Source: Gammaproteobacteria bacterium
GTDB taxonomy: Bacteria > Pseudomonadota > Gammaproteobacteria > CAJXQU01
NCBI GenBank assembly: GCA_965238175.1
Contig: CBDEGZ010000003.1
Location: 222,076 to 286,075 of the forward strand
DNA: 64,000 nucleotides
Reading direction: 5' to 3'
The translations under genes and the position numbers were made by a program. The notes beneath the pieces were generated by a model. The model saw only the letters and a list, made by a program, of their open reading frames with translations. It was not told the DNA's origin and made no database searches. This document shows, one piece after another, positions 3,316 through 63,504 of the stretch (position 1 is its first letter; every line of letters begins with the position of its first letter).

Positions 3316-5817
3316 ATGTATCGAAATTTCTTTAATCTACAAGAAAAACCTTTCAAACTAACGGCTTCACCGGAGGTATTCCACGACAATCAAGGAATCA
3401 CTCCTGCTTATAAGAAATTGATCAAAGCCATCCACTCCGAACAAAGATTGATTTTACTTTCAGGTCAAACGGGCACGGGTAAAACGTTGTGTGCAGAAAA
3501 ATTAAAGATCGATTTAAAAGGTGATCCCTATTTTGAATGTATTGCAATTCCTTTTACTTCCCTGCCACTTGACGAAATACTTGGTTACATTTGCAATAAT
3601 CTGAACCTTCATTTTGGTTTAGGCCAAGATATCGACAAGCTGGAAATTCTTGATCGTTTTCTCACACACGGACACTCTCCAATACGCTCAGTCATCATCT
3701 TAATCGACGAAGCACAAAATCTATCTCATACCATTTTGACTGGACTGGTCGAACTTGTAAAACTCGGTGTACGCTCAAAACGTAACATCCAAATTGTGGT
3801 GATGGCTCGCAATGAAACCGATCTGAATTTACATCACTCTCGCATGGCTGAATTTAATCAACATTTATCAGTAAAGTGTCAGTTAGAACCTCTCACTTTC
3901 GAAGAAACCGACTCCTATATTAAATATCATCTTGATATGGCTGGCGCTACAGACAACGGTTTTTTCACCAAGGAAGCCACCGCAAAAGTTTTTGAACTGA
4001 CTCAGGGTCGAGCACGAGCCATTAATGTTCTTTGTGATCACATCCTTAATACCGCCGCTCACGAAAAAGCAACCATCATTACGCCCCAACATGTATTTCA
4101 GTCTCACAACCAACAAAAGTTTGATGACACAATTGAAATGGATAGTTCACTTATTTCAGATGCTATTAAGGAATATGTATACGAAGAAAATCAAGTCTTA
4201 CAAAAAGAGTCGTATATCTCCACAAAACCAGAGATCTCAAATGAGCCTGATACAAAAGATCACTCTTTTTCTGAAATTGAACTTGAAGATACCGTTGAAC
4301 CTTTGATCACAAAGCTAAATACACTAGAAAACACTCACCCAACCAAATCTGTATCTAATCAATCTCTACCATCTGTAGAAGATGAAACAATAGAATTTGG
4401 AAGTACTATTATTCATACAAATAATGAACAACTGAAATCGAACACACGTAGTAAATTCAACATACCATTGTGGGGATTAATATCACTGCTTTTAATCGCA
4501 GGACTACTCTATCAAGTAAATCAACATAAGATTTTACCTTATTTAGAAAGCAGACAAATGGACCATGAAACTCTGCCACTAACAGTAGAACCTGTCATCC
4601 AACTTGCAGAAAAAATTGATCTGCCCGATGAAATTAATCTTCAAACGGAAATTGACACCCCAATAATCGACGAAAAGACCTCAAGAACCACTTATCCTCC
4701 AGAACAAAATTTCCCTGAATCTAATCGCACGATTAAAGAAAATACACTCAGCGAAAATCAAACTCTAACTGAAATTGTGCAAAAAGACCTAATGCCTGCG
4801 ACAATAATTATTGAATCGTCTGAAGAAAAAAATTCAGTTACCGAGATCGAGTTTTTATTAAAAAAAGCTAAAGTTCAAATAGCCAGTTTAAAACTTACAG
4901 TACCAAAAGATGATAATGCCTACGCAAGCTATAAGTCGATTTTACAAAAGGATCCTGAGAATGAACAAGCCAATCAAGGTATTGAAGATCTCAAACAAAT
5001 GTTCATTGAATGGGCAAAAAACAACGTCAAAAAAAACCAATTTGATCGCGCTCGCCATTATTATCGAAAAGCATTGATCGTCGATCCACAAGATCAAGAA
5101 ACACTACAAGCACTCTCCGAGCTTGAGAACAAAATCGGGGATACAGATAACATTGAATTTAAAGCTGGACTGTTAGGTCTCGCAGAAAAAGCCAACTTAG
5201 AAGAGATACAAATGCTTCTGAACAAAGGTGCGTTTCCAGAAGTACAAGATCAAAAAGGTAATACGCCACTAATGCTGGCTACCGAACGTGGTCATGTCGA
5301 AGTGATCGAAACATTATTAAACAATGGAGCTAATCCCAACATCAAAAACAACTCCGGTGACACTGCACTAATGAATGCGGTGTGGAATGCACACGCTGAA
5401 ATTGTTGATCTTTTGATCAATAAACAAGCAAATATTGATACCGCAAACAAACGTGGATGGACGGCTTTAATGTATGCTGCAGTACAGGGCCATATAGAAA
5501 TACTAGAACGGTTGACTCTTATGCGAGCGAATTTAGAATCAGAAACTGATGATCAAAAAACTGCACTTGCCATCGCTGCCTACAACGGACAATATGAAAT
5601 TGTCAAAGCACTATTAAAAAGTGGTGCACAAATAGATACACAAGATATATCTGGCTGGACACCTTTAATGTCTGCGGCCTGGAATGGTTATAAACCGATT
5701 GTGATTATGCTTTTAGAACATGGCGCAGATAAATCTATCGCCACCCCTGAAGGTGACAATGCTTTTGAGTTAGCCTCGGAACAGAGCCACTACTCCATTA
5801 TGACGTTACTAAAATAG
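3316..5817 (+). CDS. ExeA/GspA-like P-loop ATPase (GQTGTGKT, DEAQ box) with TM segment and C-terminal TPR + ankyrin repeat region
   Basis: N-terminus has Walker A 'GQTGTGKT' and 'LIDEAQNL', typical of ExeA/MSHA-type secretion ATPases (PEP-CTERM-locus ATPase-like). A TM helix lies near residues 380-400 (PLWGLISLLLIAGLLY). TPR-like repeats come next, then 6-7 ankyrin repeats (GNTPLMLATERGHVEVIETLLNNGANPN...). Confidence 0.8.
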   Translation: MYRNFFNLQEKPFKLTASPEVFHDNQGITPAYKKLIKAIHSEQRLILLSGQTGTGKTLCAEKLKIDLKGDPYFECIAIPFTSLPLDEILGYICNNLNLHFGLGQDIDKLEILDRFLTHGHSPIRSVIILIDEAQNLSHTILTGLVELVKLGVRSKRNIQIVVMARNETDLNLHHSRMAEFNQHLSVKCQLEPLTFEETDSYIKYHLDMAGATDNGFFTKEATAKVFELTQGRARAINVLCDHILNTAAHEKATIITPQHVFQSHNQQKFDDTIEMDSSLISDAIKEYVYEENQVLQKESYISTKPEISNEPDTKDHSFSEIELEDTVEPLITKLNTLENTHPTKSVSNQSLPSVEDETIEFGSTIIHTNNEQLKSNTRSKFNIPLWGLISLLLIAGLLYQVNQHKILPYLESRQMDHETLPLTVEPVIQLAEKIDLPDEINLQTEIDTPIIDEKTSRTTYPPEQNFPESNRTIKENTLSENQTLTEIVQKDLMPATIIIESSEEKNSVTEIEFLLKKAKVQIASLKLTVPKDDNAYASYKSILQKDPENEQANQGIEDLKQMFIEWAKNNVKKNQFDRARHYYRKALIVDPQDQETLQALSELENKIGDTDNIEFKAGLLGLAEKANLEEIQMLLNKGAFPEVQDQKGNTPLMLATERGHVEVIETLLNNGANPNIKNNSGDTALMNAVWNAHAEIVDLLINKQANIDTANKRGWTALMYAAVQGHIEILERLTLMRANLESETDDQKTALAIAAYNGQYEIVKALLKSGAQIDTQDISGWTPLMSAAWNGYKPIVIMLLEHGADKSIATPEGDNAFELASEQSHYSIMTLLK

Positions 5818-10398: not shown

Positions 10399-10578
10399 GT
10401 GGACAATATTTTAACAAATGAGATAGAAACAGGATCTATTCCGCACCGTGTTACTAGTTATGTTAATGACACGCAAGATACAGAAAATAAGGGGCTCAGT
10501 CAATATCTGGGAGCTGTTACTATGGTTGGTTTATTAATGTGGGTTGTTTTTGCATATATTTTAATCAGCATTTTTTGA
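10399..10578 (+). CDS. Possible small (59-aa) tail-anchored membrane protein, unannotated in the ORF track
   Basis: GTG start 7 nt after AGGAG (10387-10391). Hydrophilic N-terminus and a single C-terminal TM helix (LGAVTMVGLLMWVVFAYILISIF). It lies in the long AT-rich leader of the EPS operon. Confidence 0.3.
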   Translation: MDNILTNEIETGSIPHRVTSYVNDTQDTENKGLSQYLGAVTMVGLLMWVVFAYILISIF

Positions 10579-10913
10579 TCTTTAAAATTATTTAAAATAC
10601 ACACAAACTTTTTTAATCATTTCTTCTCTTTCGCTATATATTTTTACCTGCGGTTATTAGTAATTATACTTATTTGTTTTTTACTTTTAACAAAAATATA
10701 CCTCCGTTAACAAAAAGAAACTCTCTCCTTTGATACAACTTGAATATACTCTCAGTAAGAAATGAGGTGTATTTATGCTTTATAATTTATTTGGTCAAGA
10801 TTTTGACGGTACTTGTTCGTTCGAGTATAGTCATTGATATTGGAAATTGAGAGAGTGCTTAATAAAGATAACATTAACAAAGAGATAGGGATGTTTAAGA
10901 ATGTCAGGGATGA

Positions 10914-11525
10914 GTGATGGATAGTTTAGAGATAGTAATAACAATTCTTCTCATGGGGCTTTTTATTTCAATATACTTGTTATGGTTGGAAAAAAAGAAC
11001 CGTCAACCTAACAAGCATTTTACCGTTGAATTCTTGAAGGCGGCGTCAATTCCTTCATTCCGAGATTCAATACTACCTATAAACAGTGAACTCTCGCGAG
11101 CTCGCCGTTTTGAAAAATCAGTCTCAGTTATTGTGATCAAATATAACTCGTTCGAAGAAAACCTTGAGCAAAAAAATACTCAAGCCGATGCTTCCATTGT
11201 CGCGAATATTTTTAGTCGTCATAAAAACAAAGAAATAAGTTGGGCGAACTTTTTACAGTGCGGTATCGCCGTGCGTGATGCTTTAAGAGATATAGATTTG
11301 ATTTGTTTTGCAGGAGCAAGTTATCAGTACGTCATAGTATTACCTGAAACAACAAGGGCAAATGCGGAGCTACTACATAAAAGATTGCTTGATATTGTTG
11401 GAAGTGATATTTCAAATCAATTTGATGTTGGAATCTCAGAGTTTCCAAATGATGGTTTGATTATCGATGATCTTGTTGGTAGTGCAACGGATTCCATCAA
11501 TGAGGAGTTTGTTGCACAGCATTAA
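10914..11525 (+). CDS. Membrane-anchored protein with degenerate GGDEF-like domain (GGDEF motif replaced, 'FAGASYQYVIV')
   Basis: N-terminal TM helix. The remainder aligns by eye to the GGDEF fold (VIVIKYNSFEE ~ DlDhFK region; 'DLICFAGASYQYVIVLPETT' in place of RxGGDEFxxll; 'FDVGISEFPNDGLIIDDLVGSATDSI' ~ the SiGia...AD.alY tail). It lacks catalytic residues, so it is a possible c-di-GMP receptor. Confidence 0.5.
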   Translation: MMDSLEIVITILLMGLFISIYLLWLEKKNRQPNKHFTVEFLKAASIPSFRDSILPINSELSRARRFEKSVSVIVIKYNSFEENLEQKNTQADASIVANIFSRHKNKEISWANFLQCGIAVRDALRDIDLICFAGASYQYVIVLPETTRANAELLHKRLLDIVGSDISNQFDVGISEFPNDGLIIDDLVGSATDSINEEFVAQH

Positions 11526-11622: not shown

Positions 11623-12345
11623 ATGCAAAAGGCGAACAATGATAGAACATTTGGGAGTTCTCTACGTGATCATTTAAAAATTAGAATATTTTATTCAGAA
11701 AGACAAAGGACGTATGATCTTTATACGTTTGATCCACCAAATTCTATAACGTATAGACAAGTCAAAAGGGTTCTGGATGTGCTGCTTAGTTCTTTGATTT
11801 TAATCGCGGTATTACCCATTTTTTTATTATGCATTCTTGCTATTAAACTTGACTCACCTGGGCCGATCTTTTTCTTTCAAGAAAGGACAGGGAAAGGTGG
11901 GCATAGATTCAAGATGTACAAATTCAGAACCATGTTAGAAAATGCAGTTGAATTGAAGCAAAAATATCTTCACCTAAATACGCTCACCTATCCAGATTTC
12001 AAAATCCCTAATGATCCTCGTATCACCCGATTAGGTCGATTTCTACGTAGGTCAAGTTTAGATGAGTTGCCACAATTGCTAAATGTAATTAAGGGGGATA
12101 TGAGCCTGGTGGGTCCCCGACCTACTTCATTTAGTTCCGATACTTATGATTTGTGGCAGACCGCGCGGTTGGGAGTTACGCCAGGGATCACTGGATTATG
12201 GCAAATCTCAGGCCGAGCAAATGTCGATTTTGATGAGCGTAATCGTCTGGATATTGAATACATTAGGGATCAATCGTTCTGGTATGACACAAGAATTCTT
12301 TTTAAAACCTTTTCCAGGGTGATGGATAGAGATGGAGCAACTTGA
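11623..12345 (+). CDS. Priming sugar transferase (bacterial sugar transferase family, PglC/WbaP C-terminal type)
   Basis: AGGAGG RBS. One TM helix, then '[27 protein letters not shown] ... [21 protein letters not shown]', the conserved undecaprenyl-phosphate hexose-1-P transferase core. Confidence 0.85.
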
Positions 12346-13496
12346 TGATTATCTTGACGGTCTCTTTCTGGATATCAATCATAATAATTTTTTACACATA
12401 TATTGGATTTCCGCTTCTATTAACCATTGTTGGCTACATAAAAAATCGTAGTGTGTCTAAAGCACCGATTCAGCCTTCGGTAAGTCTCATAATTGCCGCA
12501 TATAATGAAGCGGCTGGGATCTCGAAAAAACTGGAAAATTCACTAAATCTGGATTATCCGTCTGACAAGCTGGAAATAATTGTTGCTTCAGATGGATCAA
12601 GTGATGAGACAGATAATATTGTTAGAAGTTATGCTGAAAAAGGGATCAAACTAATGAGTTTCCCTAGGCGCGGTAAAATATTCGCGCTGAATGATGCGGT
12701 GTCCCGATGCACAGGGGAAATTCTGGTGTTTTCCGATGCAAACACACAATATCATCCTGAATCAATTAAGAAACTTGTTGCAAACTTTACCGATCCTGAG
12801 GTTGGAGGTGTCTGTGGCAACCAGGTACACACAGATAAACTCGAGAATGACAATACTGCCAGTGGCGAAAAATTATACTGGAGTTATGACAAATGGCTAA
12901 AAAGAATGGAAACACTGACAGGCAGTATAGTGTCTGCTGATGGTGCTATCTATTCGATTCGGCGCGCTCTTTTTCGGTTACCAGAATCGACAGCCGTGAC
13001 GGATGATTTTGCAATATCGACGGGTGTAATTGATCAGGGATACCGTTTAGTTTTTGAAAGTGAAGCACTTGCAGCGGAAGATGCAGCGCCTGAAGCTAAA
13101 AAAGAATTTGGACGCAAAGTCAGGATAATGAATCGTGGATTACGAGGTGTATATTTACGTAAAAACCTATTAAACCCCTTTAATTATGGCTTTTACTCTG
13201 TGATCTTGTTTTCGCATAAGTTATTACGCCGGTTAGTACCTTTATTTCTGTTTAACCTGATCATAATGAGTATTTTATTGAGCGGTGAAAGTATTTTCTT
13301 TTTTAGTTTTATGATTGCTCAAATAGTTTTTTATGTCTGGGCAGGAATAAGTTACAAGTTGAGGGATACTAAGCTTGGGCAGCATAAAATATTTTACATT
13401 CCCTTTTTCTATTGCCTTGCAAATGCGGCTTCACTGGTTGCTATTTTTAAGCTACTTAGTGGGACTAAAATTGAAAGATGGCAACCACAACGATAA
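12342..13496 (+). CDS. Family-2 glycosyltransferase with C-terminal TM segments
   Basis: 'VSLIIAAYNEA...IIVASDGSSDETD' (GT-A DxD region). Multiple C-terminal TM helices. Start overlaps the preceding gene. Confidence 0.85.
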   Translation: MMIILTVSFWISIIIIFYTYIGFPLLLTIVGYIKNRSVSKAPIQPSVSLIIAAYNEAAGISKKLENSLNLDYPSDKLEIIVASDGSSDETDNIVRSYAEKGIKLMSFPRRGKIFALNDAVSRCTGEILVFSDANTQYHPESIKKLVANFTDPEVGGVCGNQVHTDKLENDNTASGEKLYWSYDKWLKRMETLTGSIVSADGAIYSIRRALFRLPESTAVTDDFAISTGVIDQGYRLVFESEALAAEDAAPEAKKEFGRKVRIMNRGLRGVYLRKNLLNPFNYGFYSVILFSHKLLRRLVPLFLFNLIIMSILLSGESIFFFSFMIAQIVFYVWAGISYKLRDTKLGQHKIFYIPFFYCLANAASLVAIFKLLSGTKIERWQPQR

Positions 13497-13570: not shown

Positions 13571-15124
13571 ATGACAGTCTCACCTAGTAATCTACCAACA
13601 AACTCTGAAGATACAAATCCTGTCACAACTCGCAAACAAATAAGGGGTTCGGGATTATTACTTGCTGGGCGATGTGTATCGTTAGTACTTAATTTTATAA
13701 CACAAGTGCTTATCGTACGTTATCTATCAAAATCTGATTATGGATCCTGGGCGTATTGTCTGTCTTTGATTGTTTTATTCCAAGCATTCTCATCTTTGGG
13801 TCTTAAACGATCAATTACGCGTTTTTTACCTATTTATCATGAGCAAAAAGATTACGGAAAGATGTTTGGGACGATCGCTCTGGTAATTATGTCGATCTTG
13901 ATCATGGGTGTTGTATTTATTGGGAGCATTCATTTAGCTCCAGAAGTGATTTCGCAGTTGATAAAAGATAATAGCGAGGTATTGAAAATACTGTTAGTTA
14001 TGATTTTTATCGTTCCAGTCCAGGCAGTTGATGGAATAATAATTGGTATTTTCGCAAGTTTTTCAAAGTCTCGATCAATATTTTTCCGACGCTACGTGCT
14101 AACGCCAGTTCTAAAATTACTGGTTGTGTTTGGACTGCTGTATTTTGAGGGTAGCGTAGTATTTCTCGCTTTAGGGTATGTCGCCGTCAGTGTGGTGGGC
14201 ATTTTAATTTTCATAAAAATGTTGATGCGTTTATTACGTCAGGAAGGTTTGATCCAATATTCGAGCTTTAAAAATTTGGACATACCCGCAAAAATTATTT
14301 TTGCTTTTTCACTTCCACTTCTAACAACTGATTTGGTGCAAGTTGTAATGCATTCTAGCAACACATTGATGTTGGGCTACTTCTATAGTGCTGAAGAGGT
14401 TGCTTTGTACAGGGTTATTATTCCCCTCGCACACGTAAATACGATAGTCTTTGCGAGTTTTGGACTGCTATACACACCAATGGCAGCAAGGTTATTTGCC
14501 CGGAATGATTATTCAGGTATTAGTAAAAACTATTGGCAAACAGCAGTTTGGTTGGCTGTACTTTCATTTCCCGTGTTTGCATTAACATTTATATCGGCGA
14601 AACCATTAACGTTGTTACTCTATGGAGATCGTTATGCGGAATCTTGGATATACCTACAAATAATGGTGGGTGCATATTATTTCCATGTGTTACTAGGTTT
14701 TAATTCATTGACTCTTGCTGTGCTAGGGAAGGTGCGCTACGTAGTAGTAATCAATATTATAGCTCTTATTATTAACTTAATACTTAATTATATTTTTATT
14801 ACAAGATATGGTGCTTTAGGAGCGGCGATAGGAACATGCGCGAGTATGGTTTGTCATAATTTGCTCAATCAACTTGGCTTGTTCTACGCTGGAGTTGAAG
14901 TATTTGACAGGCAGTATCTATCATTATATTTGGAAATCTTCGTGACTATTTTCATGCTTTTTATAATCCAGTTTTACATTTCAGATAGCATTTATGTTCT
15001 GATCCCTTTAATAATTGTAGCTTCATTAGTTATCGTTAGAAGGAGTGCTTATCAATTAAATATTGAAGATACATTTCCTGAATTAATGAAAGTTCCTGTT
15101 ATTAGTTTGTTATTGAAAAGGTAG
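13571..15124 (+). CDS. Polysaccharide biosynthesis protein / Wzx-like oligosaccharide flippase (MOP superfamily)
   Basis: 517 aa with ~12-14 TM helices. Architecture of Wzx/RfbX-type flippases, in EPS context. Confidence 0.75.
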   Translation: MTVSPSNLPTNSEDTNPVTTRKQIRGSGLLLAGRCVSLVLNFITQVLIVRYLSKSDYGSWAYCLSLIVLFQAFSSLGLKRSITRFLPIYHEQKDYGKMFGTIALVIMSILIMGVVFIGSIHLAPEVISQLIKDNSEVLKILLVMIFIVPVQAVDGIIIGIFASFSKSRSIFFRRYVLTPVLKLLVVFGLLYFEGSVVFLALGYVAVSVVGILIFIKMLMRLLRQEGLIQYSSFKNLDIPAKIIFAFSLPLLTTDLVQVVMHSSNTLMLGYFYSAEEVALYRVIIPLAHVNTIVFASFGLLYTPMAARLFARNDYSGISKNYWQTAVWLAVLSFPVFALTFISAKPLTLLLYGDRYAESWIYLQIMVGAYYFHVLLGFNSLTLAVLGKVRYVVVINIIALIINLILNYIFITRYGALGAAIGTCASMVCHNLLNQLGLFYAGVEVFDRQYLSLYLEIFVTIFMLFIIQFYISDSIYVLIPLIIVASLVIVRRSAYQLNIEDTFPELMKVPVISLLLKR

Positions 15125-15700: not shown

Positions 15701-16702
15701 ATGTCTAGACGTTTATTAATGTTTTTCACACTTTGTTTCGTCGTTCTTAATTTGTCGATTCCAACGAGTATTGCAAAAGGTCCACTTTCCGGGAAAATTT
15801 ATGCAATCGAGGTAGATGGCACGTTTGCTTATATGGGTGCTGGAGAAGAATTGGTTGTTTTTGATGTAACCAACCCCATCAAACCTATTCAGATCGCTAG
15901 TTTAGGGTTATTGGGTGATTCGGTTCAAGACATTCAAATAGTTGGAGATCTTGCTTTTATCGCGACGGGAACAGCAGGATTACATATTATCAATGTTGTA
16001 GATCCGTATCAGCCAGCGAAGGTCAGTAGGCTTGAAACACCAGGCCAGGCCAGTGGTGTCTATGTGGTTGATGGTTATGCTTATCTTGCAGCGGGTTCTG
16101 GTCTTATCATACTGGATGTAAGCGATCCTGAAAAACCGGCTCCTGTCGCATTTTCTGAGACGCTTGGTTGGGATAGTGATGTAATCGTTGCGAAAGGTTA
16201 TGCCTATGTCGCATCTGGTGAAGAAGGCGTTCGGGTTGTAGATGTTAGCAATCCACATGCGCCGACAATTATTGGTTCAATTGATACCCCTAACGATGCA
16301 AATGGCATTTTTGCAGAAAGTGATCTTCTCTTTATTGCTGCAGGATCCGGTGGGTTACAGATCGTAAATATCAGTGATCCATCTAATCCAAAAGAAGTCA
16401 GTGTTGAAGATACGGGTTATGCACGACAAGTCATAGTCAGTTCTGGTTATGCCTATATTGCTTCAGAAAGGAAGGGCTTATGCACAGTAGATATTTCCAG
16501 TCCGACAAGACCAGAGCTTATCAAACGTTACCCTGCTGAAGGTTCGGCTAATAGCATTGATGTAGAGGATGGTTACATTTTCACAGCAGATGGCATTGGT
16601 GGTCTACTGGTTATAAATGGTTTCATGAATCATTCGAGTATATCAGATAGTCAATATTCTCCCGCGCCTGATTCCGTGAGAAGTTTCACACCTAAGAAAT
16701 GA
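15701..16702 (+). CDS. Secreted LVIVD-repeat beta-propeller protein
   Basis: Signal peptide. ~8 repeats of the 'GYAYVA.G..GL.IVDVSDP..P' LVIVD-type motif. Confidence 0.8.
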   Translation: MSRRLLMFFTLCFVVLNLSIPTSIAKGPLSGKIYAIEVDGTFAYMGAGEELVVFDVTNPIKPIQIASLGLLGDSVQDIQIVGDLAFIATGTAGLHIINVVDPYQPAKVSRLETPGQASGVYVVDGYAYLAAGSGLIILDVSDPEKPAPVAFSETLGWDSDVIVAKGYAYVASGEEGVRVVDVSNPHAPTIIGSIDTPNDANGIFAESDLLFIAAGSGGLQIVNISDPSNPKEVSVEDTGYARQVIVSSGYAYIASERKGLCTVDISSPTRPELIKRYPAEGSANSIDVEDGYIFTADGIGGLLVINGFMNHSSISDSQYSPAPDSVRSFTPKK

Positions 16703-16758
16703 TTTCACTTATAAATAATAAACATACAACAATTAAAAAAAGTAGATGGGAAATTGAT

Positions 16759-19700
16759 ATGAGAAGGATGCTTGCGTCACCCCTAAGAAGACTGCAATTG
16801 AGTCTTAAACATAAACGACTTAATAACCTCATGATCATTATTTTTATGATGATGTTTGGTTTGTCTATCGTGAAAGCTGCTACGCCGCTTTCTGAGGCAG
16901 GTTACAGAGGTTTTTCCTATCCGACAGCGCTTAGCCAACCAACAGGTGAAAAGCCCGAGAGTAAATTGTGGTTCAACGATGGTTTTTGGTGGGGCATTCT
17001 TTGGAGCACTTCTGGCGGAGCGCATCATATACATAGACTGGATGAGAACACACAAGACTGGATAGATACTGGCGTATCAGTTGATGATCGTGATGACTCA
17101 AAGTCAGACACTCTGTGGGATGGAAACAATCAAAAACTCTATGTTGTCTCACACCGATTCATCAGTAATGCAGGGCAATCAGCGACTTCAGGTAACCGCG
17201 GTGAATTGTACCGTTATAGCTACAGTGCTGGATCAAATTCTTACAGCTTGGATAGTGGTTTCCCAGTTGAAGTTAATGCAGCAAGAACTGAGACATTAGT
17301 TATAGAAAAGGATTCGAATGATCGCCTATGGGTCACATATACTCGAGATCAGACTGTCTATCTAAACCATAGTGGTTCCAGCGATACTGATTGGGATCCT
17401 ACGAATAGACCATTTATTCTACCTACTGGAGATAATACGGTAGATATCGGTGCTGATGACAACTGCTCGATTGCAACTTTTAACAACAACATTGGTGTCA
17501 TGTGGAGCAACCAATCAGATGACAAAATGTATTTTTCTGCTCATCCAGATAGCGCTAGTCCAACTACAGGTTGGTCGAGTGGTGTTGTGGTATTCGAAGG
17601 TGCTGGAAACAGGTCAGCAGACGATCACATTAACTTGGCCTCTCTTGATGGTGATCCGGCCGGTGAAGTTTTTGCCGTTACTAAAACCTCGGAATCAAAT
17701 GCTCGAAATATGCTGTTAGTCTGTGACAGCGGTTGTACTTCAAGTAGTGATTGGACAGCATACACAGCTTATCAAGAGGGTGGCAGTGTGGGAAATCCCA
17801 CACGTCCAGCGGTTGTTATTGATACCAGTAATCGCCAGTTATATGTTTTCACAAGTGTGAGTGATAGTGGTCGAGATATATATTACAAAGTAACCGATCT
17901 GGATAATATCCAGTTTAATGCCTCAAGTTTAGGTAGCCCGCTTATAAAAGATTCCTCGAACTCCCCAAATAATGTTACGTCCACTAAGCAGAATTTGAAT
18001 AGTTCAACGGGATTGGCAGCTCTTTCTGCAACTGGCAGTCGATATTTACACAACCAATTTCCACTGAGCGCTAGCCCTAGTCCCGACATAACCGTAACGC
18101 CGATATCACGTAACTACGGAGACGTTGTAGTGAACGGTGTAGGTTCATTCAACTTTATAGTTAGTAACGATGGAACAACCACATTGAATGTGAGCAGCAC
18201 AAGCCTTCTTGGAAGTGATTCCGATCAGTTCAACATCGATAGTGGTAACGGTTCTTTTAGCCTGAACCAAGGGCAGAGTCAGACTGTGAGCTTGAGCTTT
18301 AACCCGACCACTGTTGGTAACAAGAGCGCAACTTTACGAATAGCGAGTAACGATCCGAACGAAGATCCCTTTGATGTAAGCCTAACCGGAAATGGTGTGA
18401 TAAGCGCTCCAGATATAACGGTCACTCCGAGCGCCAATGATTATGGAGACATTGAGGTTGGTAACACAGTTTCTTTTAACGTTGAGATCAGAAATGACGG
18501 CAGCGAAAACCTGAACGTATCGGCCCTGTCCTTGGCTGGCAGTAATCCGGGTGAATTTAGTATAGACAGCGGACAAAGTGGCAGCACTTTAGCTCCAGGT
18601 CAAAGCCAGGTAGCTGCTGTGAGTTTCAACCCTAGTTCCCTAGGGGATAAGAGCGCAATTTTAAGCATTCCTAGCAATGATCCAGATGAAAATCCGAGCA
18701 ATGTGGATTTGAGCGGCAGAGGTATATCGCCTGGAATGGGCGGCGGCACTCTAACACTTTCCCCTAGTGACGACGCACGTGTGAGCTTGGGATTTCCCAG
18801 AAGTAATTACGGCTCAGACACAGTAATAAGAATACGAGGAGCAGGCACAAGCTCTCATGAAAGTTACCTGAAATTTAACGTGGCCGGACTTACAGGTACA
18901 CCGACATCGGCCAAATTACGTCTTTTCGTAACCGATGGAAGTCCTGATGGTGGTGATGTCTACATAGTTGGCAACAGCTGGGATGAATCCACGATCACAG
19001 CGGGTAATGCACCAGCGATTAGTGGCAGCCCAATTGCTAGTGCGGGTTCAGTTATTAATGGAATCTGGATAGAGATCGATATAACTTCTGAGATTACAGG
19101 CAATGGAACTTATAGTTTTGGTATGCGGAGTAATAGCTCGAATAGTGCTCGTTACAGTTCAAAAGAAGGTGCTAATCCGCCAGAACTGGTGATCGAACAA
19201 TCCGGTACAAGTGGTTCTGTTACACCGACACTCAGTAAGAGTTTCAACCCAATAACCATCACAAGCGGAGGTATATCGACACTGACCTTGACGATCAATA
19301 ACAACGGAAATAGCGTTGCCCTGACAGGTTTAAGTGTCAGTGATAACTATCCTGCGGCGATCACAAATGCGGCTTCAGCGAATGCCAGTAGCACCTGTAG
19401 CGGTGGTACTCTGAATGCGGCAAACGGCGGTAGCAGTATTAGCTATACCGGAGGAAGCGTTGCGGCAGGGTCGAGTTGTACGATAAGTGTGAATGTGACC
19501 AGCAACACTGTAGGCCAACACCTTAATACTAGCGGCGTGGTCAGCAGTACTGAAGCACCGGACAGTGCAACAGCGAGTGCCACATTAACTGTGAATAGTG
19601 AAGTTGTAGCACCAACACTGAGCAAGAGTTTTAACCCAACCTCCATCACAAGCGGAGGTATATCGACACTGACCTTGACGATCAATAACAACGGAAATAG

Positions 19701-21789
19701 CGTTGCCCTGACAGGTTTAAGTGTCAGTGATAACTATCCTGCGGCGATCACAAATGCGGCTTCAGCGAATGCCAGTAGCACCTGTAGCGGTGGTACTCTG
19801 AATGCGGCAAACGGCGGTAGCAGTATTAGTTATACCGGAGGAAGCGTTGCGGCAGGGTCGAGTTGTACGATAAGTGTGAATGTGACCAGCAACACTGTAG
19901 GCCAACACCTTAATACTAGCGGCGTGGTTAGCAATGCAGAGGCACCGGATAGCACAACAGCGAGTGCAACTTTGGGTGTTACTTCATCAGGGGGTGGTGG
20001 TGGTGGCACTCTAACACTTTTCCCTAGTGACGACGCACGTGTGAGCTTGGGATTTTCCGGAAGTAACTACGGCTCAGACACAGTAGTAAGGGTTCGGGGA
20101 GCAGGTACAAGCTCCCATGAAAGTTACCTGAAATTTAACGTGGCTGGATTAACGAGCATACCTACATCGGCTAAATTACGTCTTTTCGTAACCGATGGAA
20201 GTCCTGATGGCGGTGGTGTATACGTCGTTGGCAGCGGCTGGGATGAATCGACTATCACAGGGAGTAATGCACCTGCAATTAGCGGTAGCCCAATTGCTAG
20301 TTCAGGTTCAGTTACGAATGGAACCTGGGTAGAGATAGATATAGCTTCGGCGATTACAGGCAACGGCACTTATAGTTTTGGTATACGGAGTAATAGCTCG
20401 AATAGTGCTCGTTACAGTTCCAAAGAAGGTACGAATCCACCAGAATTAGTAATTGAATCATCGGGAATTCCTACCCCAGACATAACCGTAACGCCGACAT
20501 CAAATAACTACGGAGATGTTACAGTCAATGGAATGGGTTCAATTAATTTTACGGTACGCAACGATGGAATCGCCACTTTGAATGTGAGTGGTACAAGTTT
20601 GATTGGAAGCGATCCTACAGAGTTCAACATCGACAGTGGTGGTTCATTCAGCCTGACTCAAGGACAAACTCAGGTGGTGAGCGTGAGTTTCAACCCAACG
20701 TCAATTGGTGGTAAGAGTGCAAGCTTACGAATAGCGAGTAACGATCCGAACGAAGATCCACTTGACGTAAGCCTAACTGGTAACGGTGTAGTTAGCGCTC
20801 CAGATATAACGGTCACTCCGAGCACTCACAGCTATGGCGACATTGTTGTAGGAAACTCGGACTCTCTTAACATAGTTATCCGTAATGATGGTAGCCAAAA
20901 CCTGATCGTATCTGCCGTGTCCTTGAGTGGAAGTAATCCGGGGGAATTCAGTATAGACAGCGGCGGTAATGGCGGCATTCTGACTCCTGGACAAAGTCAG
21001 ACGGTTACGGTGAGTTTCAATCCCAGTTCTCTAGGAACTAAGGCCGCAGTTTTAAGTATTCCTAGCGATGACCCGGATGAAAACCCGATCGATGTGGATT
21101 TGAGTGGCACAGGTGTTGATACTCCACTACCAGGTGGTAACGTGACATTCGAAGATATACAGGCTGGCGGTTCATCGAGTGCTACTGCTGTTTCAACTTC
21201 GGGTAATGTGACAGGTGTTAGTGGTGATTTGTATTTAGCGACTATCACCAGTAAATCCTTCAAGACGGTTACATCGGTTACTGGACTAGGTTTAAGTTGG
21301 AGTCTGGTCACGGAGCAATGTGCTGGACGTAACCAGACGGGTGTAACTGTTTGGCAAGCTCAGGGTAGTAGTCCTACCTCCAGCACAGTAACAGCAAATT
21401 TATCAGGAGCTCCAACTAATGCAACAATTACAGTGTCACGTTACTCCGGTGTGAGCCAAACAGATCCCATTGGAAACATTATTTCTGGTAACACTAATGG
21501 TGTGAGCGGAGCTTGTTCTGGAGGCACTGATTCTAATAGTTATAACTTTAATCTAGACACTACTACGCATGGGTCTGTCGTATTTGGAGCTATTGCCATG
21601 CGTAACAAAGCTCATACTGAAGGTTTTGGTTACACTGAACAGGTAGAGTTTGTACAGGGCAGTGGTGGCGGAAGTGCTTCGGTAGCTAACATGGATCAGA
21701 CTATTTTTAGCCCATCGACGGTTAGTGTTGATGGTATATTTAGTAGCAATGTTGACTACGCTGTTATTGGTATTGAGATCAAGCCATAG
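16759..21789 (+). CDS. Giant (~1.68k aa) secreted multi-domain surface protein with glycan-binding / adhesin-like modules
   Basis: Long signal-like N-terminus (…KHKRLNNLMIIIFMMMFGLSIVKA). N-terminal globular region. Two pairs of ~110-aa beta-sandwich repeats ('DITVTP..NYGDV.VG....F.V.NDG...L.VS' type). Two ~150-aa 'TLTL.PSDDARVS...SNYGSD...R.RGAGTSSHESYLKFNV' modules. Two identical ~130-aa 'conserved repeat/DUF11-like' modules. A poly-Gly linker. The start could also be the ORF-track ATG at 16699; 16759 is chosen because it precedes the basic/hydrophobic signal region. Confidence 0.8.
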   Translation: MRRMLASPLRRLQLSLKHKRLNNLMIIIFMMMFGLSIVKAATPLSEAGYRGFSYPTALSQPTGEKPESKLWFNDGFWWGILWSTSGGAHHIHRLDENTQDWIDTGVSVDDRDDSKSDTLWDGNNQKLYVVSHRFISNAGQSATSGNRGELYRYSYSAGSNSYSLDSGFPVEVNAARTETLVIEKDSNDRLWVTYTRDQTVYLNHSGSSDTDWDPTNRPFILPTGDNTVDIGADDNCSIATFNNNIGVMWSNQSDDKMYFSAHPDSASPTTGWSSGVVVFEGAGNRSADDHINLASLDGDPAGEVFAVTKTSESNARNMLLVCDSGCTSSSDWTAYTAYQEGGSVGNPTRPAVVIDTSNRQLYVFTSVSDSGRDIYYKVTDLDNIQFNASSLGSPLIKDSSNSPNNVTSTKQNLNSSTGLAALSATGSRYLHNQFPLSASPSPDITVTPISRNYGDVVVNGVGSFNFIVSNDGTTTLNVSSTSLLGSDSDQFNIDSGNGSFSLNQGQSQTVSLSFNPTTVGNKSATLRIASNDPNEDPFDVSLTGNGVISAPDITVTPSANDYGDIEVGNTVSFNVEIRNDGSENLNVSALSLAGSNPGEFSIDSGQSGSTLAPGQSQVAAVSFNPSSLGDKSAILSIPSNDPDENPSNVDLSGRGISPGMGGGTLTLSPSDDARVSLGFPRSNYGSDTVIRIRGAGTSSHESYLKFNVAGLTGTPTSAKLRLFVTDGSPDGGDVYIVGNSWDESTITAGNAPAISGSPIASAGSVINGIWIEIDITSEITGNGTYSFGMRSNSSNSARYSSKEGANPPELVIEQSGTSGSVTPTLSKSFNPITITSGGISTLTLTINNNGNSVALTGLSVSDNYPAAITNAASANASSTCSGGTLNAANGGSSISYTGGSVAAGSSCTISVNVTSNTVGQHLNTSGVVSSTEAPDSATASATLTVNSEVVAPTLSKSFNPTSITSGGISTLTLTINNNGNSVALTGLSVSDNYPAAITNAASANASSTCSGGTLNAANGGSSISYTGGSVAAGSSCTISVNVTSNTVGQHLNTSGVVSNAEAPDSTTASATLGVTSSGGGGGGTLTLFPSDDARVSLGFSGSNYGSDTVVRVRGAGTSSHESYLKFNVAGLTSIPTSAKLRLFVTDGSPDGGGVYVVGSGWDESTITGSNAPAISGSPIASSGSVTNGTWVEIDIASAITGNGTYSFGIRSNSSNSARYSSKEGTNPPELVIESSGIPTPDITVTPTSNNYGDVTVNGMGSINFTVRNDGIATLNVSGTSLIGSDPTEFNIDSGGSFSLTQGQTQVVSVSFNPTSIGGKSASLRIASNDPNEDPLDVSLTGNGVVSAPDITVTPSTHSYGDIVVGNSDSLNIVIRNDGSQNLIVSAVSLSGSNPGEFSIDSGGNGGILTPGQSQTVTVSFNPSSLGTKAAVLSIPSDDPDENPIDVDLSGTGVDTPLPGGNVTFEDIQAGGSSSATAVSTSGNVTGVSGDLYLATITSKSFKTVTSVTGLGLSWSLVTEQCAGRNQTGVTVWQAQGSSPTSSTVTANLSGAPTNATITVSRYSGVSQTDPIGNIISGNTNGVSGACSGGTDSNSYNFNLDTTTHGSVVFGAIAMRNKAHTEGFGYTEQVEFVQGSGGGSASVANMDQTIFSPSTVSVDGIFSSNVDYAVIGIEIKP
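19223..19985 (+). repeat. Intragenic near-perfect tandem duplication (~390 bp x 2) inside the giant gene
   Basis: Nucleotides ~19223-19612 and ~19613-19985 are almost identical base-for-base (e.g. 'cacaagcggaggtatatcgacactgaccttgacgatcaataacaacggaaatagcgttgccctgacagg...'). The encoded modules are 'PTLSKSFNP.TITSGGISTLTLTINNNGNSVALTGLSVSDNYPAAITNA...'. Confidence 0.9.
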
Positions 21790-21810: not shown

Positions 21811-22305
21811 GTGCCAGTTATTATTTGTGGCACCCTTTATTATTTGTGGCACCCTTTATTATTTGTGGCACCCTTTATTATTTGTGGCACCCTTTATTAT
21901 TTGTGGCACCCTTTATTATTTGTGGCACCCTTTATTATTTGTGGCACCCTTTATTATTTGTGGCACCCTTTATTATTTGTGGCACCCTTTATTATTTGTG
22001 GCACCCTTTATTATTTGTGGCACCCTTTATTATTTGTGGCACCCTTTATTATTTGTGGCACCCTTTATTATTTGTGGCACCCTTTATTATTTGTGGCACC
22101 CTTTATTATTTGTGGCACCCTTTATTATTTGTGGCACCCTTTATTATTTGTGGCACCCTTTATTATTTGTGGCACCCTTTATTATTTGTGGCACCCTTTA
22201 TTATTTGTGGCACCCTTTATTATTTGTGGCACCCTTTATTATTTGTGGCACCCTTTATTATTTGTGGCACCCTTTATTATTTGTGGCACCCTTTATTATT
22301 TGTGG
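21811..22305. repeat. Perfect tandem array: 19-bp unit GTGGCACCCTTTATTATTT x 25, plus one degenerate leading copy
   Basis: Directly visible; the period of 19 is confirmed by the 3-nt shift per 60-nt line. It starts 22 bp after the giant-gene stop and ends inside the last codons of the convergent gene at 22277. No spacers, so it is not a CRISPR array. Confidence 0.95.
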
Positions 22306-23569
22306 AATGGGTCCAACCAGTCCACCCAATGTTTTTACCGAACCGGGTTTTCTTACGATTCCAAAAGGAGGTAGCGTAGTAACAATCAACTAATGGCAAC
22401 TGCCAGGTATCATCACCAGTAGCTGAAAAATTAGCTTCATCATTTAACCAACTGTAAGCTCTTAATAAGGCCTTATCTTGCCAATTGAATGGATCATATC
22501 CTTGTCTCTGAAGAATGATTGCTTGAACGAGTGCACCCTGTAGTGCTTCGTAAACGTAGTTTTCCTTAGGTGGCGGCCATTGAAATCCACCACCTCGGCG
22601 TTGATCATCAGGTAAGACTCCATCTATGGAGTGTCCTTCTTTTTTACAGCCTTTTGGATTGATTCCGACAGGCTTATTTGCGTGGCACTGCCAGGCAAAA
22701 CCATATCTATAAACGAAATTTGAATATGCGTCGCGATCACCAAGCCATCCTTTAAAGACAGTGGCCGCACGGTGGATTTCTGCACGATCATTAAGATATA
22801 CCGCAATTGCTAAACGGCTTGCGCCGGCGTGAGTGCCCCAATTATTAGGTCGCTCTTCATGGGTGGAAATTAAAGTTTTCCTGCTAAGAGTGTCCGGTTG
22901 CGAATAGCGAACATTGCTTAGCCAAGCCTTAAAAAGCACTTCTTGTTTTGGGGAAAGTGTGATGAGATCAGCTGCAATAACATAAGCAGCAAGTTCTCGG
23001 CCCAATGCTAACGTAGAGCCACCTTTTTCTGTTCCCATAATCATCATGATTTGTCCCATTATTTCCTGATGAAAACTCTTTAATTCAATATCACTACATT
23101 GCAGAGATGAAGGCTCTTGGGTACAACGCACATAAACAAGGGCTTTCCCTAAGATATAGACATTGTGTTTTTGTTTATTATTACTTAAGTTCGGCTTGCC
23201 AACTGGTTTAATTGCCTGTTTTTTTAGTTGCTCCCAGGCTTCTCCTTGCATATCTAGATCAGCAAGTTCTTCAGCACTAATCCAAATACTTGTTTTTTCG
23301 GCTGGCACTGGATTTTCGTTTTCAGAAGAATTTTGTTCTAACCCAATAAGTTTACGATCCGATCCGGCATCAGCCAGAGTAACCCCTTCAGAACGAGTAA
23401 CGTCTTTTTTGCTCAGGCGAAGATCTTGTGATGAGAGTTTTTGATCTGTTGAGTACTGATCAGGTTTCTCATAATCGATCATTGTTAGACCAGTAATGGT
23501 TAACAGACTGAGCGCAGTGAGAATTGTACAAAATACGAAAAACCGTCTCATCCTTATTCTTATCTCCAT
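22277..23569 (-). CDS. Secreted alginate-lyase-family (PL5/PF05426-like) polysaccharide lyase
   Basis: Signal peptide (MRRFFVFCTILTALSLLTITG). 'NNWGTHAGASRLAIAVYLNDRAEIHRAATVF' resembles the '[28 protein letters not shown]' catalytic region of alginate lyases. 'YVYEALQGALVQAI' is similar to a conserved helix. This is a by-eye match only. Confidence 0.5.
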   Translation of the reverse strand: MEIRIRMRRFFVFCTILTALSLLTITGLTMIDYEKPDQYSTDQKLSSQDLRLSKKDVTRSEGVTLADAGSDRKLIGLEQNSSENENPVPAEKTSIWISAEELADLDMQGEAWEQLKKQAIKPVGKPNLSNNKQKHNVYILGKALVYVRCTQEPSSLQCSDIELKSFHQEIMGQIMMIMGTEKGGSTLALGRELAAYVIAADLITLSPKQEVLFKAWLSNVRYSQPDTLSRKTLISTHEERPNNWGTHAGASRLAIAVYLNDRAEIHRAATVFKGWLGDRDAYSNFVYRYGFAWQCHANKPVGINPKGCKKEGHSIDGVLPDDQRRGGGFQWPPPKENYVYEALQGALVQAIILQRQGYDPFNWQDKALLRAYSWLNDEANFSATGDDTWQLPLVDCYYATSFWNRKKTRFGKNIGWTGWTHSTNNKGCHK

Positions 23570-25335: not shown

Positions 25336-26439
25336 TTGCAAAACCTTACTGATAAAAACGAACCCATCACAGCTGAAGCGGTGGAGCAAATCCTTAAAGA
25401 AATTACTACCCATGCCGCAAGTTGGTTAGGTTTATCTGGCCAAGCTATTGTCACACTACATCAAGTTTATGATCGTCCTCAGTCAACCTTGATCTTGGTT
25501 GGTGTCGGTGGAAGCCATAAAGAACTTCTAATCAAATCACCTAAGGTTACTAGTTATGATCCTCGCTTTCATGATCGACTTTTAAAACCCGTCAGTAGTC
25601 CTTTGGTTAAGAGTAAGCTTGAGTTTGAGGCATTGTCAGCCATAGCACAACATTTTGAGGCACTTGCAGATCCTCGTTTTGCCTGGATCAAAGTTTACGC
25701 ACATCTCGAAAATCCACCTGCAACCGTTATTGAGAAGGTCTCCGAGGTGACTTTTGATAAACTACTAAGACAACCTAAAATGGCACAGGATGGTTATACA
25801 TCGTCTCGTGTAATGAAAAATTTGGGAAGTTGGTTAGCTGAATATCACAAAATAGACATGCGGCAAGTAGAGCTACGTGATGCCAGAGCTGATCAGGTGA
25901 TTACAGGTATGGTGAAATTGTTGGGTATTATTTCGAATTCGAATAGTTGGCCTCGCCCTCTGCCAGAGTCTGAGAGGGTCATTCGCCAAGCAGCATCCTA
26001 CTTACTTCCGGATGAATTGCCATTGGGTCTAGGGCACGGTGACTTTGCACCAAGAAATGTGTTTGTCGGAAGTGGCTCAAGCGTTGCTGTCATAGATTCA
26101 TTGGCAAGATATAGTGCGCCGATTTATGAGGATATCGCCTACCTTTTGGTTGAACTTTTGTCTGGTGCTGTTCGTCTCAGACGCGGCACATTACCTATTT
26201 CAACGGCCGAGCTTGCTGGTTTGAGGACGGCACTACTCGAAGGTTATAGCATTGCTGATGATGAAGTATTAAATATATTTGAACTTCGTGCTTTGCTCGA
26301 CAAGTGGCGATCGCTCACACAGCGAGCTAGATCAAACAATTTGAAAGGTCGGGCTACACGTATGGTAGATACTTTTCGTCGAATAATCGTGTCACAACGA
26401 GCCAATACGCTTATTAAACAGTTAAGAAAACATCAGTAA
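25336..26439 (+). CDS. Protein-kinase-like / aminoglycoside-phosphotransferase-fold protein (paralog A)
   Basis: 'GLGHGDFAPRNVFV...VAVIDSLARYSAPIYEDIAYLL' resembles the APH/choline-kinase catalytic loop (HGD..xxN) and DFG-equivalent (IDxE). TTG start is uncertain. Paralogous to 27448-28563. Confidence 0.55.
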   Translation: MQNLTDKNEPITAEAVEQILKEITTHAASWLGLSGQAIVTLHQVYDRPQSTLILVGVGGSHKELLIKSPKVTSYDPRFHDRLLKPVSSPLVKSKLEFEALSAIAQHFEALADPRFAWIKVYAHLENPPATVIEKVSEVTFDKLLRQPKMAQDGYTSSRVMKNLGSWLAEYHKIDMRQVELRDARADQVITGMVKLLGIISNSNSWPRPLPESERVIRQAASYLLPDELPLGLGHGDFAPRNVFVGSGSSVAVIDSLARYSAPIYEDIAYLLVELLSGAVRLRRGTLPISTAELAGLRTALLEGYSIADDEVLNIFELRALLDKWRSLTQRARSNNLKGRATRMVDTFRRIIVSQRANTLIKQLRKHQ

Positions 26440-26623
26440 AGTCTCTATTGTAAACTGAACATTGATAATTTGAGGCTTTACAATAAGTTACTTGGGATCT
26501 GTTTATTCTTTATCAAAGAAATTATATGCTAATAAGTTATTATGGAATAACAAACTTCGAGATCAGATGTTTTGAAAAGAACAACAATTTCGACTAAATG
26601 TTAAGTACAGGAGCATATAAAAT

Positions 26624-27463
26624 ATGGATCGGTCACCTAATTTTCTTTATATTGGTACCAGTAAAGCAGGTTCTACGTGGTTGTATAATGTACTAGATAA
26701 TCACTCGAATATTTATATGGCACCTGGTAAGTCCATCTATTACTTTTGTAATCATTACGCGCGTGGCAGGGATTGGTATCTTCAGAATTTTGAATCTGCA
26801 GAACAACAAAAAATCATAGGTGAAGTTTCACATAGCTATCTTTACTCACCAGAAGCATGCCAGAGAATTGCGGAACTAAATCCAGATATGCATCTTATGG
26901 CATGTTTGCGAGAGCCCACAGATCGAGCCTTTTCTGATTATTTGGATGGCGTAAAAAATGGCCTGTTTCATGGCAGCTTTGAAGAAGAATTAGAACGAGC
27001 ACCTTCTTTAATTGATCGTGGAAAGTATGCAAAACATTTGAAATGTTATGTCGAACAATTTGGTCTTGAGCAACTTCATATTGGTGTGTTTGATGAGTTG
27101 GGGGCCGACCCAGATGTATTTGCCCAAAGAATATTTAAATTCCTTGCTGTAGAGGTGCGTGAACTTCCCAGCTCACAACGTAAAAAGATGATGCCAGCAG
27201 GAAAGCCCCGCTCCAAGTTTCTTGCACAATTTGCCAAGAAGGCCTCACATACTGCCAGATCTCTAGGTTTGAGGAAGTTGCGAGGCAAGGTAAAAACATC
27301 ACGATTAGCACGGAACATCCTCTACCGACCTTATACTGCTAAAGAAAAACCACAGATGAAGCCAGAAACAAGGAAGAGATTAAGAGAGGTTTTCCGAGAA
27401 GATGTTACCGCTTTAGATTCACTATTAAATATGGACTTTAAAGGACAATGGGGATACAAATAA
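26624..27463 (+). CDS. Sulfotransferase-domain protein (PAPS-dependent)
   Basis: AGGAG RBS. 5'-PSB motif 'IGTSKAGSTWL' and 3'-PB-like 'LREPTDRAFSDY'. 279 aa. Confidence 0.8.
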   Translation: MDRSPNFLYIGTSKAGSTWLYNVLDNHSNIYMAPGKSIYYFCNHYARGRDWYLQNFESAEQQKIIGEVSHSYLYSPEACQRIAELNPDMHLMACLREPTDRAFSDYLDGVKNGLFHGSFEEELERAPSLIDRGKYAKHLKCYVEQFGLEQLHIGVFDELGADPDVFAQRIFKFLAVEVRELPSSQRKKMMPAGKPRSKFLAQFAKKASHTARSLGLRKLRGKVKTSRLARNILYRPYTAKEKPQMKPETRKRLREVFREDVTALDSLLNMDFKGQWGYK

Positions 27464-40802: not shown

Positions 40803-40806
40803 TATT

Positions 40807-41538
40807 CTATACTTCCCTGTCTTGATGAAATTTGTAGATTTGTTCCTTTACGTGTGAGACCACCAACTCTAAAGGTATTGTTGTATCAACAACGACTGAA
40901 TTTTTTGCGACACTTTGCAATTCTAAATATTGCTTACGTTTTATTTCAAGAAACTCCGGGTTGAATTCACCTTTTCGGGCAAAAACCACTTCTCCAGGTG
41001 CATCAAGAATAATTAGCAGGTCAGGTTCTCGTAGTGTATATTTCAGCACAAATCCATGTATCCTGCGTTTGAGCGAAATATTTTTATCACCAACTTGCAT
41101 ATCTTGATGATAATAATCATAAATAAAATGTCTGTCGAACAACACAATGTAGCCACGTTGAACATAAACCCAGGAAACGAGTTGTCTGTACCATTCTTCT
41201 AGTATCCTGTTTCCTAGACCAACACTTTTACGAATTTTTCTGATCAATTTTTTAGCTAAATTTCTTGTTTCAGCTTTCCGTACTAACTCATCAAGCGCTT
41301 TATCTTCATGATCAAGTTCATTTTGAACTTTTTGGGAATGAGGTATCACATGTCCTGTAATGCCTTTGTTCTTCTTTCGAGTTTCCCACCAACGTGTGGT
41401 TGGTAACATTATGTTACTGGCTTCAACATTCATACCCATATAAATGTATTTAAGTGGTAGATTAAAAGATTCTTCAAGTTCTTTTGAAACAGTGGTTTTG
41501 CCAACACCATCAGGCCCAATTAATGTAACTGTAAACAC
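40807..41538 (-). CDS. Small P-loop NTPase/kinase-like protein (Walker A 'GPDGVGKTT')
   Basis: Walker A at residues 8-16 and a Walker-B-like 'LLIILDAPGEV'. Size and layout are those of nucleoside/sugar/APS-kinase-like P-loop kinases. The specific family was not identified. Confidence 0.45.
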   Translation of the reverse strand: MFTVTLIGPDGVGKTTVSKELEESFNLPLKYIYMGMNVEASNIMLPTTRWWETRKKNKGITGHVIPHSQKVQNELDHEDKALDELVRKAETRNLAKKLIRKIRKSVGLGNRILEEWYRQLVSWVYVQRGYIVLFDRHFIYDYYHQDMQVGDKNISLKRRIHGFVLKYTLREPDLLIILDAPGEVVFARKGEFNPEFLEIKRKQYLELQSVAKNSVVVDTTIPLELVVSHVKEQIYKFHQDREV

Positions 41539-45968: not shown

Positions 45969-45982
45969 GTTTACTTATATTG

Positions 45983-63491: not shown

Positions 63492-63504
63492 TTTAAAAAC
63501 AGCG

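Follow-up and report, generated by a model that had tools for sequence, protein, structure and literature searches.

What does a small membrane protein with a GGDEF-like domain do at the head of an EPS gene cluster when the motif that names the domain is missing? The question is raised by a gene on the forward (+) strand at 10914..11525 of the window, by which we mean the whole 64 kb stretch of DNA that was analyzed. An earlier note on this DNA proposed that the gene encodes a catalytically dead GGDEF-like protein that resembles c-di-GMP receptors such as PelD and controls an EPS operon. In what follows, the gene, the fold of its product, the two nucleotide sites of the domain and the neighborhood of the gene across related loci are examined, and the ways in which the protein could act on EPS synthesis are weighed.

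The open reading frame encodes 203 amino acids (aa) from a GTG codon and contains a single hydrophobic helix, which agrees with the small one-TM protein described previously. Because homologues begin with MDNSQLI..., the ATG at 10917, which lies one codon past the GTG and gives a product of 202 aa beginning MDSLEIV..., is more likely to be the start than the GTG at 10914. The deposited form of the protein (P0001) has 190 aa and starts from M14, which would truncate the TM helix. This helix spans residues 5-25 (10926..10988, +), has the hydrophobic sequence LEIVITILLMGLFISIYLLWL, was found by a hydrophobic 19-mer test and is helical in the AF2 model (residues 4-29). The basic stretch EKKNRQPNKH follows directly after the helix, and by the positive-inside rule this would place the GGDEF-fold domain (residues about 44-197; 11043..11504, +) in the cytoplasm.

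The gene is preceded by an AT-rich leader of 650 nt that contains a promoter-like sequence, TTGACG-17-TATAGT (10803..10831, +), which matches the sigma-70 consensus at 10 of 12 positions and is a consensus match only. An Rfam scan of the 650-nt leader and of the whole window found no riboswitch and no other Rfam family, and this is therefore evidence against c-di-GMP riboswitch control at this locus. The leader also holds an ORF of 59 aa (10399..10578, +) with a C-terminal TM segment. A 56-aa homologue of this ORF (MDN[IV]LT...GLS..LG...) is found at the same position in two related loci (L002 and L004), and the ORF may encode a conserved tail-anchored micro-protein of the locus.

Assignment of the domain to the GGDEF fold depends on how the search is carried out. 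On its own, the window protein has no match in Pfam, a weak match to PleD in NCBIfam (E 0.01) and an insignificant match to a diguanylate cyclase in the PDB (E 0.77). None of these single-sequence searches is significant, and the fold comes to light only with profiles and structure. A total of 21 homologues were found, none of which has a precomputed Pfam domain (0/21), and PF00990 is weakly matched by 20 of the 21 when each is scanned singly. When a profile made from the first alignment was compared with the PDB, its top matches were all GGDEF cyclases, and a family profile of 123 sequences matched the GGDEF domain of DosC (E 7e-8) and 6d9m (E 1.2e-7). When the 123-sequence profile was run against a large protein collection, the family graded into true PF00990 proteins at an E value of about 1e-13. 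The GGDEF match is significant at the level of the family profile and not with the lone sequence in Pfam. BLASTP aligned the window protein with the domain of a genuine GGEEF cyclase (L009) at E 6e-9. The window protein has the palm-like GGDEF fold, and its AF2 model is of moderate confidence (pLDDT 74.8). The earlier note had proposed this fold and had named the lack of any significant GGDEF-fold match as grounds for giving the proposal up; the profile and structure searches returned GGDEF domains, and the proposal stands.

The catalytic site of the domain has been lost. L009 came from the genome scan and served as the positive control for the alignment; it was rejected as a member of the family and kept out of it, being a canonical multidomain GGEEF cyclase with no phosphoglycosyl transferase gene downstream. 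In the BLASTP alignment, the window segments ELSRARRF, IKYNSF, RDALRDIDLICFAGASYQYVIVLPET and HKRL lie opposite ELSRTRRY, MDIDHF, REALRDIDIIGRIGGE-EFAIVLPQT and AERL of L009, respectively. The equivalent of GG(D/E)EF is G134-A-S-Y-Q-Y139 (11313..11330, +), which is aligned to GGE-EF with a one-residue insertion, so that the replacement by GASYQ in the earlier note was essentially right. Strand beta1 carries K76-Y-N78 (11139..11147, +), within IKYNSF, in place of the metal-binding D-x-D, and a variable loop of residues 81-104 (11154..11225, +), with pLDDT <50 and gap-rich alignment columns, is found where active cyclases have the GTP-binding segment FKxxNDxxGHxxGD. Among 169 aligned relatives, the family consensus at the GGDEF position is a-a-n-N-Q-[YF], and neither the GGDEF-equivalent nor the metal-Asp-equivalent positions are conserved. 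The window protein has neither a GG(D/E)EF motif nor the D-x-D-x-F-K Asp and guanine-binding N/D segment of active cyclases. An active diguanylate cyclase was rejected as an identity for the window protein on these missing catalytic residues. The family as a whole likewise has no GG(D/E)EF motif, no metal-binding Asp and no guanine-binding N/D segment, and it therefore cannot be one of cyclases. As a separate observation, many family members have a G-N-G or NGNG-rich low-complexity stretch at the equivalents of window residues 89-94, which is located in the loop that substitutes for the GTP-binding segment; the window protein lacks it.

The residues of the allosteric I-site have been retained. 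The primary I-site is R125-D-I-D128 (11286..11297, +), an RxxD motif that aligns with RDID, RSSD and REVD of solved or genuine cyclases. It is followed by LICFA and then by GASYQY, which puts the RxxD five residues N-terminal (5') of the degenerate motif. The third I-site Arg is R157 (11382..11384, +), which aligns with the Arg of AERI/AERL in DosC and L009 and occupies what we take to be the position of PleD R390. An ExxRxRR motif, E59-L-S-R62-A-R64-R65 (11088..11108, +), contains the secondary I-site RxxR and aligns with the ELSRTRRY segment of L009. Across the 169-sequence alignment, which includes the best 150 relatives from the exhaustive HMM search described below, R125 and R157 are each found in 169/169 sequences, D128 and R65 in 167/169, R64 in 166/169, E59 in 164/169 and R62 in 163/169, with the reservation that relatives were gathered with the family profile and the apparent conservation of the motifs is somewhat inflated. 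The mean column identity in the 123-sequence alignment is about 21%, and no columns other than R65, R125 and R157 are invariant. A search for an RxxD equivalent, which had been suggested as a check, was strongly positive: no residues in the family are better conserved than those of the RxxD, the RxxR and the third Arg. The window protein has the RxxD spacing, the third Arg and the secondary RxxR of I-site receptors of the PelD/PssE/YdaK type. Judged from its sequence, the combination of an invariant I-site with a wholly degenerate A-site is the signature of a receptor and not of an enzyme, and the protein is best read as a diguanylate-cyclase domain stripped of its catalytic site in which an I-site of the c-di-GMP type has been retained. 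Some findings count against its being a c-di-GMP receptor. The structural model is only moderately confident, a one-residue insertion sits between the I-site and the helix that bears R157, and no GGDEF, EAL or HD-GYP enzyme is encoded among the ORFs of the 64 kb window.

The receptor gene is the first gene of an EPS cluster that extends to about 41.5 kb of the window. The next gene encodes a small (240 aa) polyprenyl-phosphate phosphoglycosyl transferase (PGT) of the Bac_transf type (11623..12345, +; PF02397, E 1e-65; TIGR03025-like). It is followed by a membrane GT2 of 384 aa with N- and C-terminal TM segments (12342..13496, +; PF00535, PF13641, PF13632), the start of which overlaps the PGT stop, and by a Wzx-type flippase (13571..15124, +; PF01943, PF13440, MatE). 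The Pfam identities of these three genes agree with the priming transferase, GT2 and flippase that had been read directly downstream (3') of the gene, and the best NCBIfam match of the GT2, PgaC/IcaA, is far below the cut-off. A Wzy-like polymerase (29788..31179, -; Pfam Wzy_C), Wza (31871..32938, +; Pfam Poly_export/SLBB) and Wzc (33079..35883, +; Pfam Wzz/GNVR/AAA_31; NCBIfam Wzc) are encoded further along, and the cluster also encodes GT4, deacetylase, sulfotransferase, APH-like, ATP-grasp and dTMP-kinase-like proteins.

Which of these genes is the partner of the receptor was examined across related loci. The profile search with the first alignment gave 5 genome loci and 8 metagenome loci, and the tally reported here covers 21 loci (L001-L008, L011-L022 and the P0089 contig), or roughly 15 once near-duplicates are merged; it leaves out L009 and L010, both of which have no downstream PGT, and L023, where the downstream DNA is too short. 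A small Bac_transf gene lies directly downstream of the receptor gene in each of the 21 family loci that extend far enough in that direction. Where gene calls exist, its product has 228-255 aa, and the stop and start codons of the two genes often overlap. The adjacency persists down to about 22-26% receptor identity and includes Calditrichaceae and deltaproteobacterial MAGs. The PGTs are 45-75% identical to that of the window (at least 61% except in L022) and the GT2 proteins 46-79%, so both are far better conserved than the receptor. A GT2 follows the PGT in nearly all loci, with the exception of L014, where it is 9 kb away, and the setting is that of Wza/Wzc/Wzx/Wzy clusters. Wzc is directly upstream of the receptor gene in L001, L006-8, L011, L015, L017-L020 and the P0089 contig, and it is not adjacent in the window or in L002-5. 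The PGT is taken as the partner because, unlike GT2 and Wzc, it is adjacent in every tallied locus, and it is the PGT rather than the whole operon that is the invariant genomic partner of the receptor family. Location in an EPS biosynthesis operon, and specificity to such operons, is a further feature shared with receptors of the PelD/PssE/YdaK type.

Several characterized proteins resemble the window protein in part. PssE (Lmo0531) from Listeria monocytogenes binds c-di-GMP with a Kd of 0.79 uM and a stoichiometry of two per protein and is essential for EPS; like the window protein, it is a membrane protein with a degenerate GGDEF motif (DKDDA in PssE), an RxxD five residues upstream and a place in an EPS operon with a GT2 (PMC4125290). 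PssE, which was compared by description, differs in having 285+ aa, in passing the Pfam GGDEF model and in that its gene closes a pss operon of the synthase type, whereas the window protein has 203 aa, one TM helix and a domain below the Pfam threshold, and its gene is the first of the cluster and is paired with a PGT in a Wzx/Wzy/Wza/Wzc setting. In Bacillus subtilis YdaK, the R202A and D205A substitutions abolish EPS production from the ydaJ-N operon, and a secondary RxxR has been described (PMC5422440). YdaK shares with the window protein a TM region joined to a degenerate GGDEF motif (SDERI in YdaK), an RxxD five residues upstream and the secondary RxxR (PMC5422440), but it has four TM helices, its partners are the GT2 YdaM and YdaN, and there is no PGT, Wzx or Wzy.

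The protein named in the earlier note, PelD from Pseudomonas aeruginosa, requires R367, D370 and R402 for c-di-GMP binding (PMC8461298). It is likewise an inner-membrane I-site receptor with a degenerate GGDEF domain that gates a polysaccharide post-translationally, and R367, D370 and R402 correspond to R125, D128 and R157, the last of these by position and not through direct alignment. I-site residues of this set are needed for binding or function in PssE and YdaK as well as in PelD. The claimed resemblance to PelD-type receptors that are much larger is upheld in that the I-site residues correspond and the architecture differs. The window protein was rejected as a PelD orthologue, since it lacks the arrangement of four TM helices, GAF and degenerate GGDEF domains together with pelE/F/G and has lower structural similarity. 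BcsE, a GIL/degenerate GGDEF protein of enterobacterial cellulose secretion, is similar in that it uses an I-site-like RxxD to bind c-di-GMP and controls an EPS machine (PMC8461298); membership in BcsE/GIL (DUF2819) was rejected on architecture and lower structural similarity. The best structural and sequence matches are active I-site cyclases (PleD, DosC, TpbB/YfiN and the T. maritima DGC), which share the motifs ExxRxRRY, RxxD, LPET, AER and FP.DG with the family but differ in having GG(D/E)EF, the metal-binding Asp and the guanine-binding N/D segment, all three of which the family lacks. There is a precedent in the Caulobacter holdfast glycosyltransferase HfsJ, which works at an early step of a Wzx/Wzy-like pathway and is directly activated by c-di-GMP (PMC11481889). 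HfsJ differs in being itself the protein that binds c-di-GMP, with no receptor subunit of the GGDEF type.

The reading that we favor, with a probability of about 0.6, is that the window protein would be an I-site c-di-GMP receptor of the PssE/YdaK/PelD kind that gates the priming of Wzy-dependent EPS. It would be a membrane-tethered pseudo-diguanylate cyclase, with one TM helix and a cytoplasmic GGDEF-fold domain in which the GTP/metal site has been destroyed, and c-di-GMP would bind the retained allosteric site formed by the RxxD and R157 together with the secondary RxxR. In PleD, an intercalated c-di-GMP dimer bridges the primary and secondary sites of two protomers; the ligand of the window protein would probably also be an intercalated c-di-GMP dimer, and it may bridge the primary and secondary sites of two protomers. 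The c-di-GMP-bound receptor would act on (activate or stabilize) the adjacent small PGT and/or the membrane GT2 that follows it. Undecaprenyl-phosphate priming, the first committed step, would in this way be switched on post-translationally at high c-di-GMP, and flux through the Wzx/Wzy/Wza/Wzc EPS pathway would be gated via priming. Every check applied here agreed with the interpretation in the earlier note. That c-di-GMP binds, whether it activates and which protein it acts on through the receptor are inferred, and the adjacency of the genes is compatible with PGT, GT2 or Wzc as the target. Because the gene always directly precedes the EPS-initiating enzyme and the I-site has been kept, it is probably an unannotated switch that couples polysaccharide synthesis to c-di-GMP.

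The strict adjacency to the PGT would also be expected of a scaffold that acts independently of nucleotide, in which the dead GGDEF domain recruits, stabilizes or positions the PGT (and the GT2) at the membrane and the conserved Arg and Asp residues serve contacts or the fold. Pseudoenzymes often have scaffold roles, and PelD does not need to bind c-di-GMP in order to assemble the PelDEFG complex (PMC8461298). What makes this explanation unlikely is that invariance coincides exactly with the I-site set (RxxD, Arg and RxxR) in a domain that has otherwise diverged to about 21% identity. The RxxD is moreover dispensable for the GGDEF fold, and many active cyclases lack it, which counts against a purely structural role.

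Retention of the site could also reflect a different ligand, such as a cyclic dinucleotide other than c-di-GMP, (p)ppGpp, GTP or an intermediate of the pathway. Binding of further nucleotides by GGDEF domains does occur, and a PleD structure with both c-di-GMP and ppGpp (9g85) is among the fold matches, but the Arg/Asp geometry of the I-site is that of the guanine-specific c-di-GMP site in PleD, PelD, PssE and YdaK, and the GTP-binding half of the window domain is deleted or disordered, so a different ligand seems highly doubtful. A further alternative keeps c-di-GMP as the ligand and moves the output, possibly an inhibitory one, to the GT2, to the Wzc kinase/co-polymerase or, through GGDEF-GGDEF contacts, to a partner cyclase. 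YdaK acts together with its cognate cyclase and with the GT2 YdaM (PMC5422440), a GT2 comes after the PGT in nearly all loci and Wzc is directly upstream in many. This arrangement is improbable when set against the distance of the GT2 in L014 and the non-adjacent Wzc genes of the window and L002-5, since the PGT is adjacent in every locus.

The family to which the favored c-di-GMP receptor belongs is large. When 1.84 billion representatives were searched exhaustively with an HMM, 3778 proteins matched at E<=0.001, of which 561 (clusters) remained at a cut-off of E<=1e-10 and 78 at one of E<=1e-30. Among the top 150 matches, almost every protein has 160-280 aa. Pfam and NCBIfam contain no model for the receptor family, and most members are annotated at source as 'hypothetical protein', with one 'GGDEF domain-containing protein'. 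A hydrophobic N-terminal 19-mer is found in about 105/169 members, and the remainder are apparently soluble or fragments. About 38% of members are without a hydrophobic N-terminus, and membrane tethering is therefore not essential to function; P0150, for example, is a soluble member with the same gene neighborhood. It is a tentative proposal, which we hold at somewhat less than even odds, that this large, cross-phylum and unmodelled family of minimal I-site receptors represents dedicated c-di-GMP-sensing subunits of small monotopic PGTs, with the window protein as its founding example.

To our knowledge, the well-described post-translational c-di-GMP switches all act on synthase-dependent systems. 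A 2021 review of post-translational c-di-GMP control of EPS covers cellulose, alginate, Pel and PNAG and never mentions Wzx (PMC8461298). Our literature searches turned up no paper in which a priming transferase, or a Wzy-dependent pathway, is linked to a degenerate GGDEF receptor. The minimal architecture, a divergence that puts the family under the cut-offs of curated models, its wide spread and the strict pairing with a PGT in a Wzy-dependent pathway are new. The family has hundreds of diverged members across phyla that have been overlooked by Pfam and NCBIfam and are mostly called 'hypothetical'. If its members are indeed dedicated subunits of small PGTs, a post-translational c-di-GMP switch would exist at the priming step of Wzx/Wzy-dependent pathways. 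Should binding be confirmed, the priming step would become a new control point in c-di-GMP biology, the signature ExxRxRR ... RxxD ... R ... FPxDG without GGDEF could be added to effector censuses, and the receptor and the PGT would offer a small, tractable two-protein system for the regulation of PGTs.

Other features of the window were noted in the course of the analysis. Genes for an APH-like kinase, sulfotransferase, ATP-grasp and dTMP-kinase-like proteins are located at 25336..27463 and 39576..41538, and these modifier-type genes recur with the receptor-PGT-GT2 triad across phyla (L001, L014, L015), which suggests that these clusters make a conserved, chemically modified polysaccharide (possibly sulfated or phosphorylated). 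Two paralogues of about 377 aa (28587..29717, + and 38354..39496, -) are 50.5% identical and have no match in Pfam or NCBIfam; orthologues of both turn up in the corresponding EPS clusters from distant taxa (L006, L008, L011, L014), and one orthologue has faint matches to HprK_C/ScmC. The Wzc ORF (33079..35883, +) is extended at its N-terminus by about 170 aa, which include an HTH of the transposase type (HTH_Tnp_1/HTH_28, residues 19-64). Either the ORF has been called too long, or Wzc is fused to the remnant of an IS, or this is a genuine variant of Wzc that binds DNA. The EPS cluster also encodes, at 15701..21789 (+), an LVIVD-repeat beta-propeller and a 1696-aa protein (CBM96, DUF7933, DUF11, ASH/Ig-like), and an alginate-lyase-like gene (22277..23569) lies on the opposite strand to these.

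The remaining observations concern the rest of the window, which has a G+C content of about 40%. A large AAA and ankyrin-repeat protein is encoded at 3316..5817 (+) and a eukaryote-like Ser/Thr kinase at 50221..51657 (+), a combination that hints at a gammaproteobacterium living in association with a host, for example one of the Legionellales. Two IS481-family insertion sequences (about 44743..45973 and about 62266..63495) are 99.7% identical over 1231 nt, have their transposases on the minus strand and bracket about 16 kb. Relatives with 70% identity to an IS481 copy are found on plasmids of Pseudoalteromonas, Vibrio and Aquicella.
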